Positions 38,316-44,305 of a stretch of DNA of 64,000 bases are shown in pieces. Every line of letters begins with the position of its first letter. Within the stretch, counting starts at the first letter, position 1. The notes beneath the pieces were generated by a model that did not search any database, was not told where the DNA came from, and was given only the letters and a program-made list of their open reading frames with translations. Position numbers and translations under genes: made by a program. Origin of the DNA: Tyzzerella sp. (GTDB lineage Bacteria > Bacillota > Clostridia > Lachnospirales > Lachnospiraceae); contig JAFUOS010000025.1 of NCBI GenBank assembly GCA_017472665.1, positions 3,072 through 67,071 of the forward strand, in the 5' to 3' direction.

Positions 38316-40610
38316 ATGATTCAATTATATAATCAAGGTGCATATTTGTTGAATGGCACAGAACTTGTGGAAGATACAAAAGATGCACAAGCGATTATTG
38401 CTGCAAAGACAGGAAAAACTGTAAATAAAGAAGAAGCAGCAAAAGAAACGATTGCTTACAATATTTTAAAAGAGCACAATACATCTTCAGATATGGAACG
38501 TTTGAAGATTAAATTTGATAAATTAACATCTCACGATATTACATTTGTTGGGATTATTCAGACAGCGAGAGCTTCTGGACTGGAAAAGTTCCCAATTCCG
38601 TATGTTTTAACAAACTGCCACAACAGTTTATGTGCAGTTGGTGGAACGATCAACGAAGATGACCACATGTTTGGACTTACATGCGCAAAGAAATATGGTG
38701 GAGTTTACGTGCCACCTCATCAAGCAGTTATCCATCAGTTTGCAAGAGAAATGCTTGCAGGCAGCGGAAAGATGATTCTTGGTTCAGACAGTCACACACG
38801 TTATGGTGCTCTTGGTACGATGGCAATGGGCGAAGGTGGACCGGAGCTTGTAAAACAATTACTTAATAAAACTTACGATATTAAGATGCCAGGCGTTGTG
38901 GCAATCTATTTAGATGGTGAACCATCTATCGGCGTAGGTCCACAGGACGTTGCACTTGCAATTATCGGAGCTACATTTGGAAATGGCTATGTAAATAATA
39001 AAGTCATGGAATTTGTTGGACCTGGTGTTTCTAAATTGAGCGCAGATTTCCGTATCGGAATTGACGTTATGACAACAGAGACAACCTGCCTTTCTTCTAT
39101 TTGGAAGACAGATGAGACAATCAAAGAATTCTATGACATCCATGGAAGAAGCGAGGATTACAAGGAATTGAATCCTGGTGCAGTTGCTTACTATGACGGC
39201 GTGGTATATGTTGACCTTAGCAAAATCAAACCAATGATTGCGATGCCATTCCATCCAAGCAACGCATATACAATCGACGAAGTAAATGCAAACCTCAAAG
39301 ATATCTTACACGATGTGGAACAACGCGCATTAGTAAGCCTTGACGGTGCTGTAGAATATTCATTACAAGATAAAATCCGCGATGGAAAACTTTACGTAGA
39401 ACAAGGTATTATCGCTGGATGTGCTGGTGGTGGATTTGAAAATATCTGTGCAGCAGCAGACATTATCCGTGGAAAGAGCATCGGTTCTGATGCATTTACA
39501 CTTAGCGTATATCCTGCAAGTACACCAGTTTACATGGAACTTGTAAGAAACGGTGCAGTTGCTGACCTTATGGCAGCAGGCACAATTGTTAAGACCGCGT
39601 TCTGCGGACCATGTTTCGGTGCTGGAGATACACCTGCAAACAACGCATTTAGTATTCGTCACTCTACAAGAAACTTCCCGAACCGTGAAGGTTCTAAGCT
39701 GCAAAGCGGACAGATTTCTTCTGTTGCACTTATGGATGCTCGTTCTATCGCAGCAACAGCAGCAAACAAAGGTTTCTTAACTTCAGCAGCTGACGTAATG
39801 GATGTGGAATATAAAGCGCCAAAATATCACTTTGACAGCAGCATTTACGCAAACCGCGTATTTGACAGCAAGGGCGTAGCTGACCCAAGTGTGGAAATCC
39901 AGTTTGGTCCAAACATCAAGGACTGGCCGGCGATGTCAGCACTTCCTGAAAACTTGATTTTGAAAGTGGTTTCTGAGATTCATGACCCTGTTACTACAAC
40001 AGACGAATTGATTCCTTCTGGAGAAACTTCTTCATACCGCTCAAATCCACTTGGACTTGCAGAGTTTGCATTGTCAAGAAAAGACCCTGCTTATGTAGGT
40101 CGTGCGAAAGAAGTGCAAAAGGCACAGAAAGCAATTGAAGCAAATACATGTCCATTGGAAGCGTTGGAAGAGTTGAAACCAGTGATGGCAACTATCCGTG
40201 CATCTTATCCAGAAGTTGGAGAAGGCAATATTGGTGTTGGAAGTACGATTTTCGCTGTGAAACCAGGTGATGGTTCTGCTCGTGAGCAGGCTGCTTCTTG
40301 CCAGAAGGTATTAGGCGGATGGGCAAATATTGCGAATGAATATGCGACAAAACGTTATCGTTCGAACCTGATTAACTGGGGTATGCTTCCATTCATTACG
40401 GAAGAGAACCATGAAGCTCTTAGCTTCAAGAATGGAGATTATATCTTTGTTCCGGATGTTAGAAAAGCCGTGGAAGAAAAGGTGGATACAATCAAGGCAT
40501 TTGTGGTTGGTGATGAGTTGAAGGAGATTACATTGAAACTTGGTGACCTGACGGATAATGAGAGAGAGATTATTTTGAAGGGTTGCTTGATCAACTATTA
40601 TAGAGGATAA
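38316..40610 (+). CDS. Aconitase-family hydratase (YbhJ-like)
   Basis: [41 protein letters not shown]. Confidence 0.92.
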
Positions 40611-40923
40611 TTTTGCTTTTGAGAGTTTGCTCCGGTGTGCCAGGCTTTTTTGTAAAGGGTACTCCAGGTTTAATGGGTAAATTTCTATATAGCACAAAAT
40701 TATGTTACAATACCCTTGTTTTCATGTAAAGCAAGGGTATTATGGACTATTTTCGTTCTATATCGAAAAATAGACTCCCAAAACGGCCAAAATATAGGAA
40801 TTTTAGTAGTTTTACGGGTATAGAGTAACAATTTTTTGGTATATACCCATGAGAAGGGAAATGGACGCATATGATGATACGGCTGGGTCTTGCAGCAATA
40901 TTTCTAACAGGGCAAAGTGACAG

Positions 40924-40938
40924 AATATTCTGACAATT
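40924..40938. promoter_or_regulatory. CodY-like box
   Basis: AATATTCTGACAATT; two mismatches to AATTTTCWGAAAATT. Confidence 0.4.
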
Positions 40939-40990
40939 GCAAAACAAAAATAAAGTAGAAAAATAATTTAAACAAAATTAGAAAATAGTA

Positions 40991-41019
40991 TTGACAAAAC
41001 AGAATCCCAGTGTTATTAT
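40991..41019 (+). promoter_or_regulatory. sigmaA promoter firing into an ORF-free region
   Basis: TTGACA-17-(TG)TATTAT. Confidence 0.7.
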
Positions 41020-41024
41020 AATAT

Positions 41025-41656
41025 CAACAAAAGAACTTAAGGAAAGAGGAATTTTCCAAAAGACAATTTCTGAAAAATAAATTTTCCAGACTCAAGTAAG
41101 AAAGCATTTCGAATCCATTATTTCTGACGAGAAAGGAAGTAATATAAATTCAGAAATCATCCGAAATGGGGACGGCAAATTTCAAAGTAAGAAATCTTGA
41201 AGAAAAAGAATTTCCATTAAGAATAAAAAAGAAAGAGAGGCTAGGATCCAATGGACAACTTCGAATCTACAATTCAATATGTTAGTGGTATGGCAAATGA
41301 AGAAACCTGCGACGAAAGCCTTTACCATAGATTATAATCCAGACAGATATGAAAAGGGAAAAGATAATTTGGAGAGTATAAAAAGAATCTGGATGAAAAG
41401 GAAAAGATGATATATTTGCAAACATATTGAAATAATACCACAAGGATTAAAGTTATAAAAAAGATGTGTAAAGAAACATTAGAAGATCAGATAATTATCG
41501 ACATAACTTTAATCAGTCTGAAGAAAAGGAAGAAAAAGAGGCAGCGGGTTTTAATTCATAAATATCCTCCAAATAGAAAGAGAAAAAGGTTAAAAATGAA
41601 TAAAGAAGAGATGTAAAGAGGTAGTCATTATTGAAAGAATAGTGGCTACCTTTTTT
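41025..41656 (+). ncRNA. Candidate large structured non-coding RNA (~630 nt)
   Basis: Promoter upstream, terminator at end, no ORF of 60 aa or more, several nested perfect stems of 7-12 bp. Confidence 0.6.
41619..41656 (+). terminator. Intrinsic terminator of the candidate ncRNA
   Basis: AGGTAGTCATTATT/AATAGTGGCTACCT hairpin (G-U pairs on the + strand) with T tract. Confidence 0.8.
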
Positions 41657-41770
41657 GGGGATTCTGAGTCAATAGTTGGGGTGGGATTTTTGCACATGGA
41701 TGTTTCATAGATGCATGGCAAAAAAAGGTGCCCGAATCAATATATCGTCACAAAATCTTAAGGAGTTTTT

Positions 41771-41822
41771 TGTTACACATTTGTTACATTTTTTTGACAT
41801 TAATACACTCGTGTGATAGAAT
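41771..41822 (+). promoter_or_regulatory. WalR-type box and sigmaA promoter of the TPR gene
   Basis: TGTTAC-ACATT-TGTTAC (41771-41787), then TTGACA-17-TAGAAT. Confidence 0.5.
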
Positions 41823-41884
41823 AAAAAAAGATAAAAAGATAGAACGTAAGTTATTAATTCGATAAAATATAGGGGTGAAGAACG

Positions 41885-44305
41885 GTGGATAAACATGAAT
41901 ATCGTGTAAAAACAGAACAGATGCTTGAATATATGCGTCAAAAATCCTACAAGCAAGCGATGGACATTGCAGATGCGATTGATTGGCGGAAAGTAAAAAA
42001 TATATCGATGCTTTGTGCGGTGAGTGAAATTTATGAATATAACGGGGAATATCAAAAGAGCCGTGATATTTTATTCTTGGCATATGATCGTTCACCGGAT
42101 AGTAGAAAGATTATTTATCGACTGGGTACTTTGGCGTTGAAACTGGGGGAAGTGAAGGAAGCGGCGGACTGCTACGAAGAGTTTGTTGCATTGGCACCAA
42201 AGGATCCAAATCAATATGTCTTAAAATATAAGATTTTAAAGAGCAGAAATGCATCTTTGGAAGAACAAATCGAGGCGTTAGAGGAATTTAAAAAGGTTGA
42301 ATATGTAGAAAAGTGGGCATTTGAGCTGGCAAAATTATATCAGGATGCTGGTATGACAGCGGAATGTATTGACGAATGCGACGACTTGATTTTATGGTTT
42401 AGTGAAGGAAAATACGTTTACAAAGCGATGGAATTGAAGATGCAGTACAAGCCACTTACACCATTGCAGCAGGAAAAATATAATCTGCGCAATGCAGCAC
42501 CAGCAGTGGAAGAAGCAGTTGCAGAAATTCCGGCAGCGGAGGAAACGGTTGCGGAAGTTCCAGCAGCGGAAGAAGCAGCAGATGAACCAATAGCCGAGGC
42601 AGTGGCCGTGGAAGCACCAGTAGCCGAAGAGGTTGCTGTGGAAGTGCCAGTAAATGAAGAAGTGGTTGCGGAAGCACTAGCAGTGGAAGCGCCAGTAGTA
42701 GAAGAAAAAATAATGGAAGAAATGACAGCAGGGGAGTCAGCCGTGGAAGAAAAAGTAGTCGAGGAAGCAGTCACAGAAGAAAAGAAAGAAGCCCCAACAC
42801 TCAGTATTGAAGAAATGCTTCAGGAATGGGAAGAAAAGCAAAAAGAGAATGCCGAGATGATTCGCGCCAAAGTGGAGGAAGTTGAATCAGAAAAAGCACA
42901 GGAAGAGGCAGTAGCTGCTGAACAGGTTGACGTGGAAGAAGAAAGCATTCTTCCAGATGACATCAGGCAGTTGATGGAAGAACTGGAATCAGAGTCTGCT
43001 GATATTGAAGCACAAAAAATTAAATCGGAAGAAGAAATTCAAGAACAAAGACCACAGGAAAGTGTGCATGTGAAGTCGCAGACAGAACAGCCACAGGAAG
43101 ATAAACCATTGATTCAGAAGGTGGCAGAGCAGTTGGCAGCATTGGATGTGATTCCGGCAGCGGCAGTAAAAGCGGAAACAGCAGCAAGTGCGGGAGCAGC
43201 CGTAGGTGATGGTGCAGTAGGCGGTGTAGGCGCAGCAGTGAGTGCGGGAGTTGCAGGAGCAGCGTCAGAAGTTACAGAAAAAGCATTCTTCGAAGAAGAA
43301 GGTTTTGAACAAGTTGTTTCACATGCATTTGAAGCAGGAGAAGTGAAAGAAGAAGCACCTGGAATCAAATTGGGTGATACACAGTCGATGGCAGCAGTTG
43401 CAAAGGCTTTGAAGAATAATGTAGAAGTGGAAATTCCGGAAGAAGTGGAAGAAGAGGCCGAGGAAGAGCGAAGCCAGTATGACACAGGATTTATCGTACA
43501 GGGACGTTACGACTTAGAAGCACAGAGTGCAATTGGATTGAAGGCAGGACTTACAGAAGAACAGAAGAAATTATTCTCCTACTTCGTACCTGTTCATGGC
43601 ATGAGTGAACAAATCGTAGAAGTATTACAAAACGATAAGAAATGCAAATCCAGATATGGAACATCCAGAATTGGAAACTTATTGATTATCGGCCGTAAAG
43701 GTTCTGGAAAAACGGTACTTGCAGTTGATATTGTAAAAGCGATTCAGAAAGCAAGAAAATTAAAACAAGGCAAAGTAGGAATTGTAAAAGCCGAGTCTTT
43801 GAATAAAAAAGATGTGGCAGACATTCTTGGCAAACTGCATGGTGGAGCAATTATTATCGAGAAGGCTTCCAGATTAAACCGCAAGACGATTGATGATATG
43901 TGTGAGGTCATGGAAGGTCAGACCGGTGAACTGCTTGTGGTTCTTGAAGATGAAAGAAAACCATTGGAAAAAATGCTTGCGGCATATCCACAATTTGGCA
44001 AGAAGTTTACTTCTCGTTTGGAATTGCCAGTATTTATCAATGATGAACTTGTAACATTTGGACAAACCTATGCAAAGGAAAATGGTTACAAGATTGACGA
44101 AATGGGTATTTTGGCACTCTATAGCCGCATTGATATGCTGCAGAGAAATGAGCATGTTGTAACGGTTGCAGATGTAAAAGATATTTTGGATGAAGCGATT
44201 GATAATTCGCAGAAAGCAAGCTTCAAAAAGATTGTGAAGAAGGTCTTGGGTAAAAACAAAGACGAGTCTGATAGAATCCTCTTAAGAGAAGAAGATTTTA
44301 AATAA
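41885..44305 (+). CDS. TPR-repeat protein with acidic linker and C-terminal P-loop/AAA-like domain
   Basis: N-terminal TPR-like helices; Glu/Ala-rich repeats; GRKGSGKT. Confidence 0.8.
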   Translation: MDKHEYRVKTEQMLEYMRQKSYKQAMDIADAIDWRKVKNISMLCAVSEIYEYNGEYQKSRDILFLAYDRSPDSRKIIYRLGTLALKLGEVKEAADCYEEFVALAPKDPNQYVLKYKILKSRNASLEEQIEALEEFKKVEYVEKWAFELAKLYQDAGMTAECIDECDDLILWFSEGKYVYKAMELKMQYKPLTPLQQEKYNLRNAAPAVEEAVAEIPAAEETVAEVPAAEEAADEPIAEAVAVEAPVAEEVAVEVPVNEEVVAEALAVEAPVVEEKIMEEMTAGESAVEEKVVEEAVTEEKKEAPTLSIEEMLQEWEEKQKENAEMIRAKVEEVESEKAQEEAVAAEQVDVEEESILPDDIRQLMEELESESADIEAQKIKSEEEIQEQRPQESVHVKSQTEQPQEDKPLIQKVAEQLAALDVIPAAAVKAETAASAGAAVGDGAVGGVGAAVSAGVAGAASEVTEKAFFEEEGFEQVVSHAFEAGEVKEEAPGIKLGDTQSMAAVAKALKNNVEVEIPEEVEEEAEEERSQYDTGFIVQGRYDLEAQSAIGLKAGLTEEQKKLFSYFVPVHGMSEQIVEVLQNDKKCKSRYGTSRIGNLLIIGRKGSGKTVLAVDIVKAIQKARKLKQGKVGIVKAESLNKKDVADILGKLHGGAIIIEKASRLNRKTIDDMCEVMEGQTGELLVVLEDERKPLEKMLAAYPQFGKKFTSRLELPVFINDELVTFGQTYAKENGYKIDEMGILALYSRIDMLQRNEHVVTVADVKDILDEAIDNSQKASFKKIVKKVLGKNKDESDRILLREEDFK

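Follow-up and report, generated by a model that had tools for sequence, protein, structure and literature searches.

The window, by which we mean the whole 64,000-nt stretch of DNA analysed, contains at 41026-41656 a stand-alone RNA gene with its own promoter, terminator and CodY-like box, located between genes for an aconitase-family hydratase and a TPR/AAA+ protein (Table 1). These control elements had been recognised in the original prediction of a large non-coding RNA at this position, and all of them bear inspection. The TTGACA-17-TGnTATTAT promoter is present in the sequence, with the -35 hexamer TTGACA at 40991-40996, a 17-nt spacer and TG-n-TATTAT ending at 41019, and its pattern recurs 5′ of the core in 97/98 homologues; the span from promoter to terminator is 415-1064 nt in 97 homologues (median 695). 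For the terminator, a permissive test was passed by 98/98 homologues as against 31/98 shuffles; a terminator scanner listed none here, probably because the stem runs into the T run. The conserved motif that precedes it has no pairing partner in the homologue alignment, and the stretch as a whole is 47% A.

Table 1. Features of the RNA gene and its immediate neighbours, in window coordinates
Feature	Position	Strand	Detail
Aconitase-family hydratase gene, upstream	38316-40610		NF008503
CodY-like box	40924-40938	+	67 nt upstream of the -35 hexamer; 2 mismatches to the presumed consensus
Sigma-A-type promoter, -35 and extended -10, A-tract 5′ of it	40991-41019	+	11/12 consensus matches
Predicted transcript, ~630 nt	41026-41656	+	start placed from the -10 position; RNA-library contigs map within the stretch
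Optional 5′ domain, closed by stem 41036-45/41211-21	41036-41221	+	consensus fold of 9 long versions
Hairpin with conserved loop TGACGAGAAAG	41118-41142	+	6-7 of 7 pairs in 9/9
Shine-Dalgarno site	41235-41242	+	can also pair with 41317-41323
Mini-ORF, 28 codons (MDNFESTIQYVSGMANEETCDESLYHRL)	41251-41337	+	start codon inside small hairpin 41247-41255
Central helix 41273-83/41421-31 and nested helix 41293-98/41414-19	41273-41431	+	95.7% and 95.2% of cells paired, two-sided changes
Pseudoknot 41285-91/41435-41	41285-41441	+	96.2% of cells paired, 3 pairs with two-sided change, 98/98 complementary
Long-range pseudoknot 41303-10/41544-51	41303-41551	+	mutual information and tree-aware changes
RCCTT strand, two candidate partners: Shine-Dalgarno site or 41537-42	41317-41323	+	possible switch
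Hairpin 41337-43/41388-94; loop strand 41368-74 pairs with 41567-73 (pseudoknot)	41337-41394	+	
12-bp stem enclosing hairpin 41463-80, near-invariant loop GTAAAGAA, entry of variable-length insert	41445-41514	+	
Conserved 3′ motif, consensus AAATTRAATA	41594-41602	+	precedes the terminator
Intrinsic terminator	41619-41656	+	stem 41619-41651 then T5, -21.5 kcal/mol
TPR/AAA+ gene, downstream	41885-44305		long acidic repeat linker, AAA+-like C-terminal region

The box at 40924, likewise part of the original prediction, was scored against what we take to be the CodY consensus. Boxes with no more than 2 mismatches occur in 46/96 homologues, compared with 0.4% of shuffles, and when up to 4 mismatches are allowed 75/88 sites fall at a distance of 60-69 nt, 5′ of the -35 hexamer. 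A codY gene was found in the same genome, and the transcript is probably CodY-controlled; from the motif we infer nutrient regulation of the RNA. A word of 30-40 nt directly after the terminator (41649-41690) has many matches in relatives, often near contig ends, and probably represents either a small repeat or the terminus of an insertion sequence.

By BLAST, the RNA was found in 23/24 same-genus genomes (G008 gave no match) and in 36/300 family genomes, several of the latter matches being marginal. A sequence-only model applied to Lachnospiraceae, one genome per genus, detected it first in 31/150 and then in 36/150 genomes, 34 of these at E < 1e-6; the order-wide search matched 3/14 family genomes and, marginally, 2 among 136 others, and the class-wide search gave 1 marginal match among 149, with 13 candidates scored per genome such that more distant forms may be missed. 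The marginal out-of-family matches G396 and G499 gave no score on re-search (G437 was unscored), and the marginal match G500 reads as coding sequence without the other features of the RNA. No convincing copy was found beyond Lachnospiraceae, in phages or in plasmids; viral contigs yielded 0 pattern matches, and a looser pattern gave 4, none of which scored with the model. Most genomes have a single match. Among the matches listed, motif-sharing records are titled Dorea, Mediterraneibacter, Faecalimonas, Schaedlerella, Muricomes, Blautia and other Lachnospiraceae, and records titled with unrelated taxa had no score with the RNA profile.

The TPR gene lies 3′ of the RNA in 93/123 loci with enough flank, and the hydratase 5′ of it in 36/134 loci, in both major clades; aconitases can moonlight as RNA-binding proteins. 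Orthologues of the TPR gene are present in 28/30 family genomes chosen as core-less, with 0 model matches nearby. The arrangement is in keeping with a locus that is inherited vertically at one constant site, with no functional dependence.

Conserved helices and predicted pseudoknots

Homologues were drawn from 115 loci, of which 98 non-identical sequences were kept, those removed being 14 duplicates and 3 that had no usable 3′ block; several same-genus loci were left out as identical to Faecalimonas-titled records. Every stem listed in the original prediction is found in the window sequence. However, the folding energy of the whole RNA is unremarkable (z = -1.42), and whilst the two perfect stems of at least 11 bp exceed chance (P = 0.002, 500 dinucleotide shuffles), those of 7-8 bp fall within it (P = 0.88 and 0.29 in the same test), and the case for structure therefore rests on comparison. 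The stem closing the 5′ domain (41036/41221), the perfect 11-bp and 12-bp stems (41273-41283/41421-41431 and 41445-41456/41503-41514) and the pairing ATCCAGA/TCTGGAT are all kept in relatives. In contrast, CATTTCG/CGAAATG and ATTTCTGA/TCAGAAAT are not, retaining 2-6 of 7 and 3-6 of 8 pairs, respectively, in 8 relatives, and a local TGGTA/TACCA pairing is possible in 60/98 homologues, as against 98/98 for the pseudoknot partner at 41435-41441. The nested-stem model first proposed has three short stems wrong and lacks the long-range pseudoknots.

A core with three long-range pseudoknots is supported by compensatory changes across the 98 homologues. Peaks of mutual information correspond to Watson-Crick pairs, and top mutual information together with a high Watson-Crick fraction picks out the helices 41303-10/41544-51, 41337-43/41388-94, 41368-74/41567-73, 41293-98/41414-19 and 41463-67/41476-80, many other high-ranking pairs being phylogenetic noise. 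Within the first of these, pairs 41305/41549 and 41308/41546 reach z = 12.9 and 11.2, with pairing at 98% in both and same-branch changes numbering 2 against 0.05 expected and 2 against 0.19 expected; pair 41341/41390 (z = 12.2) shows 7 such changes against 0.52 expected, and 41370/41571 (z = 8.0) is paired in 100%. Tree-aware co-changes lay above expectation for 10/10 pairs tested, several of them resting on two events. Six helices are 92-96% paired in 56 diverse sequences, above both controls, and two-sided change is seen in 21/42 named pairs, compared with 11.0 in shuffles and 7-11 in slid controls; for the 12-bp stem, the real partner beats a shuffled partner in 84/95. A metagenome set of 66 distinct matches (6 already in the set, 11 false and 49 new) supplied held-out copies, of which 49/49 pair at two positions that had been left free by the search pattern. 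As three of the supported helices cross others, the core would hold at least three pseudoknots, or four if the RCCTT strand pairs with the Shine-Dalgarno (SD) site.

This last possibility is less clear-cut. RCCTT is compatible with the SD in 79/97 by a motif-based count, and with the 3′ strand in 75 of the 77 homologues that yielded such a strand; on the tree, the SD partner has modest support (2/5 changes) and the 3′ partner none (0/5), and the SD/RCCTT helix failed a column-placed count, at 31% paired. In the short-ORF clade, RCCTT seems to find a local partner, and one pseudoknot is apparently absent. RNase P-like words in the sequence (GAGG..AGTCC and ACAGGAAC) were rejected, since covariation pairs them otherwise and a canonical gene exists.

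Judged from the homologues, the 5′ domain is optional: the distance from promoter to core ranges from 9 to 434 nt, and the lengths of this domain and of the insert 3′ of the GTAAAGAA hairpin vary by hundreds of bases around a steady core. The hairpin at 41118-41142 is retained where the short 5′ stems of the original prediction are not, with its conserved loop motif in 37/97 homologues. Loop words recur in the variable arms, namely GACGAGAAA (37/97), a TTATAGA type (55/97), CATATGTnGGTGAG (10/97) and TTYAAGTARG (12/97), and look like interchangeable docking modules. At two loci, L018 and L019, weak BLAST matches mark another promoter-like stretch about 1 kb 5′ of the RNA, in which the GACGAGAAA hairpin word occurs again; it is possibly the remnant of a duplicated 5′ domain.

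Ribosome-binding site and mini-ORF

The stretch had been described as ORF-free, which is incorrect; a conserved small ORF at 41251-41337 crosses the 5′ strands of four core helices, and the term "non-coding" must be qualified to accommodate a ribosome-binding site and a frame-conserved mini-ORF within the structured core. An anti-SD duplex of -5 kcal/mol or lower can form in 97/98 homologues, compared with 1/98 for a control window, and the SD begins 13-16 nt before a start codon that is ATG in 62, TTG in 26 and GTG in 10 of the 98. Spacing from the start to a conserved QY pair is 21, 24, 27 or 30 nt in 98/98, through 10 parsimony changes, unlike four control spacings, which use all three phases; stops in this variable linker number 0 in frame, against 67 and 29 in the other frames. 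Among 184 distinct copies, the motif includes a start in 182; read-through is seen in 171 and is in frame in 170 of these, whereas 11 stop at codon 3-4, with only 5 in frame and 6 off-frame (Fisher 7e-8, a value overstated since the copies are kin). The stop falls 18-23 codons after QY in the main clade and at QY+7 in 21/23 of a second, short clade, where it is TAG, TAA or TGA and follows a fixed 7-residue tail. Overall, ORF length ranges from 2 to 37 codons, with shortening to 15 or 2-3 codons in some lineages. On these comparisons, the mini-ORF is probably translated.

Whether the product matters is a separate issue. The RNA might be a dual-function RNA or structured mRNA in which the knot times synthesis of a QYxSG peptide, or in which the peptide recognises the RNA that encodes it or some partner protein; we regard this as unlikely but not negligible. 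In its favour, frame, start and stop position are all conserved, each of Q, Y and G is present in 96/98, and the short clade has its fixed tail. However, pN/pS is 0.62, 1.07 and 1.1 in three segments of the ORF, that is near 1, although overlap with helices masks the test, and residue changes such as V/E/K/G track compensatory base changes. Because pS is low (0.037) in the paired segment QYxSG may yet be under selection, and because its residues lie in helices any such selection is inseparable from that on the RNA. The early stops in 11/184 copies and a frame-shifted C-terminus in one clade also count against a functional peptide, as does the absence of a protein family match in Pfam or NCBIfam for the window peptide and in NCBIfam for 14 variants; Atlas matches reach only 0.81, and the exact peptide is absent from the protein collection searched. 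The peptide accordingly looks unselected, with a sequence close to neutral, and the comparisons are most simply read as selection that acts on the loading and passage of ribosomes and not on the product.

More specific roles for the peptide fare no better. Type I toxins are hydrophobic membrane peptides, whereas those encoded here are polar with no hydrophobic run, making a toxin mRNA unlikely; an exported pheromone is unlikely for a peptide without a signal segment, and peptide-TPR signalling, presumably of the RRNPP-like kind, was rejected for want of both a signal sequence and linkage.

Two unusual genomes deserve mention. G154 carries two copies (L204 and L234), in both of which the ORF is off-frame or early-stopping. 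In G004, a copy at L247:2870-3260 retains the CodY-like box, promoter and 5′ domain together with the SD and an ORF of 6 codons, directly after which comes the terminator; the whole of the knotted core is absent. Because of this copy, and of G008 without any match, the RNA is probably dispensable, unless the loss of the core in G004 is an assembly error.

Presence in RNA libraries and relation to known families

The RNA is present in RNA libraries, with part of the stretch contained in 13 RNA runs. In bovine and sheep gut RNA from four studies, contigs with 0-5 differences cover parts of 41041-41416; run X19 had no contig on the stretch. Word depth is 8,750 (a 66-nt contig, 0 differences) and 13,648 (161 nt, 3 differences) in two rumen runs, and only 3-8 in two other runs, which is a hint of high abundance from contigs that carry no strand, ends or level and may include DNA carry-over. 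The flanks are without cover in the RNA contigs, and summed depth is at most ~1,000 for the neighbour genes against at most 356,000, a comparison left uncounted as depth does not rank genes. An apparent circular RNA with a joint 41586 -> 41217 in one run was taken as a misplacement, there being similar A-rich words on both sides.

Searches of Rfam 15 at gathering and E-value thresholds with the window and 12 diverse homologues returned only chance miRNA/sRNA matches; OLE, GOLLD, raiA, HEARO and all other Rfam 15 families gave no covariance-model match, and raiA was found in 0/5 genomes, with a silent control. ROOL (RF03087) is excluded with a working control: its model scored 130.4 bits on the positive control pMP118 but gave no match at E ≤ 10 in 40600-41900, none in the 12 homologues and none in three carrier genomes, and the model of the present RNA had no match to the positive-control ROOL. 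A ROOL search of 41 relatives and 151 phylum genomes likewise returned nothing, with silent controls. Taken with conservation, covariation, the CodY-like box at its fixed distance and presence in RNA libraries, these results support the original prediction of an undescribed large structured RNA, and the class, of large pseudoknotted RNAs with an embedded mini-ORF, is real and apparently undescribed. The Fremin preprint describes candidates of 29-134 nt, one of them very highly expressed. No description of the RNA was found in the open full-text literature, subscription papers lying outside its scope: the main text of PMC11109978 does not mention Lachnospiraceae, and six supplementary files of PMC8040213, alignment archives aside, contain no motif match, although fragments may be listed in those archives.

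The closest likenesses are to other large RNAs. ROOL, which averages 581 nt, is described in the accessible text of two papers as multi-junction and multi-pseudoknot, and as abundant and non-essential in one strain (PMC5737381, PMC12286853); the present RNA resembles ROOL and GOLLD in being large and built of several junctions and pseudoknots, with function unsettled. It differs from them in being chromosomal, syntenic and found in one family, with none in phage or plasmid collections, whereas ROOL and GOLLD are often in phages or prophages and near tRNA clusters; the only tRNA of the window is 6 kb off, and the neighbours are of housekeeping type. The RNA also carries an SD and a frame-conserved ORF, neither of which is described for ROOL or GOLLD in the accessible parts of these sources; ROOL and GOLLD themselves form RNA-only homo-oligomeric cages.

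Like the raiA motif, said in an accessible excerpt to be very abundant, and OLE, the RNA is a chromosomal structured ncRNA of Bacillota, but with another size range, other neighbours, a narrower range (one family) and an internal mini-ORF. In tmRNA, which engages ribosomes, a short reading frame is similarly embedded among pseudoknots; unlike tmRNA, however, the present RNA is without tRNA-like ends (ARAGORN finds no tmRNA in the window), and it would start by an SD and start codon, not a resume codon. Finally, like the dual-function sRNAs RNAIII, SR1 and Pel, as these are outlined in part of PMC12310071, it is an independent transcript, several hundred nt long, in which a small ORF is carried; here, however, the peptide seems not to be selected, its length varies from 2 to 37 codons, and the structural core is overlapped by the ORF.

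Candidate modes of action

The interpretation to which we tentatively give most weight is that of a large, putatively multi-pseudoknot and likely abundant structural RNA in which the loading of a ribosome gates both folding and decay, the ribosome-binding site and mini-ORF likely being there to recruit that ribosome and not to encode a functional peptide. With the promoter and box motifs observed at the locus, transcription would be by sigma-A and probably tuned by CodY to the nutrient state. A ribosome would then bind the SD at the 5′ edge of the core and translate across the 5′ strands of the core helices; as the 3′ partners are made 120-250 nt later, the translating ribosome could be a folding timer, keeping these strands open until their partners are available. 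Bacillus precedent suggests that the ribosome may also block 5′-to-3′ decay by RNase J, and an RNase J family gene is present in 5/5 genomes tested. In Bacilli, according to an accessible portion of PMC3997798, a ribosome bound at 5′ stabilisers (cryIIIA STAB-SD, ermC, hbs) shields downstream RNA even without translation of the body, and a strong SD protects untranslated RNA; the present case would differ in that the protected body is a knotted structural RNA and that frame and stop position also appear selected. After ribosome release, the core may fold up as a compact knot, with RCCTT able to pair with the SD and so to silence further translation. By analogy with ROOL, GOLLD and raiA, and in particular with the ROOL and GOLLD cages as set out in part of PMC12286853, the folded product could be a structural or scaffold RNA, its loops docking and its arms optional.

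If translation does gate folding, there would be a direct tie between the ribosome and the maturation of a structural RNA. Few bacterial RNAs are both large and intricately folded, and several of these (ROOL, GOLLD, OLE and raiA) are unsolved cases; the present class is a candidate addition, borne on the chromosomes of named gut genera (Dorea, Mediterraneibacter, Faecalimonas, Schaedlerella, Blautia and others). It offers experimental handles in the regulator site, the ribosome-binding site and natural variants, ~415 to 1064 nt long, by which a minimal core is delimited, and may explain a block of unassigned reads in gut metatranscriptomes.

A further proposal, in which we place somewhat less confidence, is that of a very abundant, CodY-controlled, multi-pseudoknot RNA machine in major gut commensals, for which a single ribosome pass over a throw-away mini-ORF acts as both folding chaperone and on/off switch, and which, once folded, stores ribosomes or forms an RNA-only particle. 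More doubtful, and slightly less likely than a functional peptide, is a ribosome sponge or storage RNA in which the strong SD captures 30S or 70S ribosomes that stall at the knot, lowering or storing translation under CodY-sensed starvation. The SD and start codon are the most universal element (182/184) and survive in the core-less copy, the CodY-like box is in place, and single-contig word depths in two rumen RNA runs are high; but read-through to a conserved stop suggests traverse and termination, not stalling, and contig depth is a poor guide to how strongly an RNA is expressed. A ribozyme or RNP enzyme of an unknown kind, with the knot as catalytic core and translation as off-switch, is improbable. 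Multiple pseudoknots and invariant residues, both found here, are treated as signs of sophisticated biochemistry in the accessible text of PMC5737381; however, the RNA was found in one family only, is A-rich with arms that vary freely, has apparently lost one pseudoknot in the short-ORF clade and matches no Rfam ribozyme.

We give very little credence to either of two remaining ideas. That the RNA is a far-diverged member of a catalogued family, such as ROOL, RNase P or tmRNA, might be suspected from the ROOL-like size, pseudoknots and rumen presence, from the tmRNA-like ORF among pseudoknots and from the failure to find RNase P RNA in the source genome (65% complete), but no Rfam family matches, a normal tmRNA lies separately on contig C14, and RNase P RNA, with no match in the region, has a canonical gene elsewhere in 5/5 near-complete relatives. 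A cis-regulatory leader or attenuator of the TPR/AAA+ gene, for which the frequent TPR linkage, a leader ORF and alternative pairings could speak, is just as improbable, given that the TPR gene has its own 11-of-12 promoter (41794-41822), is unseen downstream in 30/123 loci, and has orthologues in 27 other genera with no RNA match nearby. Just upstream of the -35 hexamer of the TPR gene lies a direct repeat of TGTTACA with an 11-nt period (41771-41788), similar in several same-genus loci, which resembles what we take to be an OmpR/PhoB-type regulator site.
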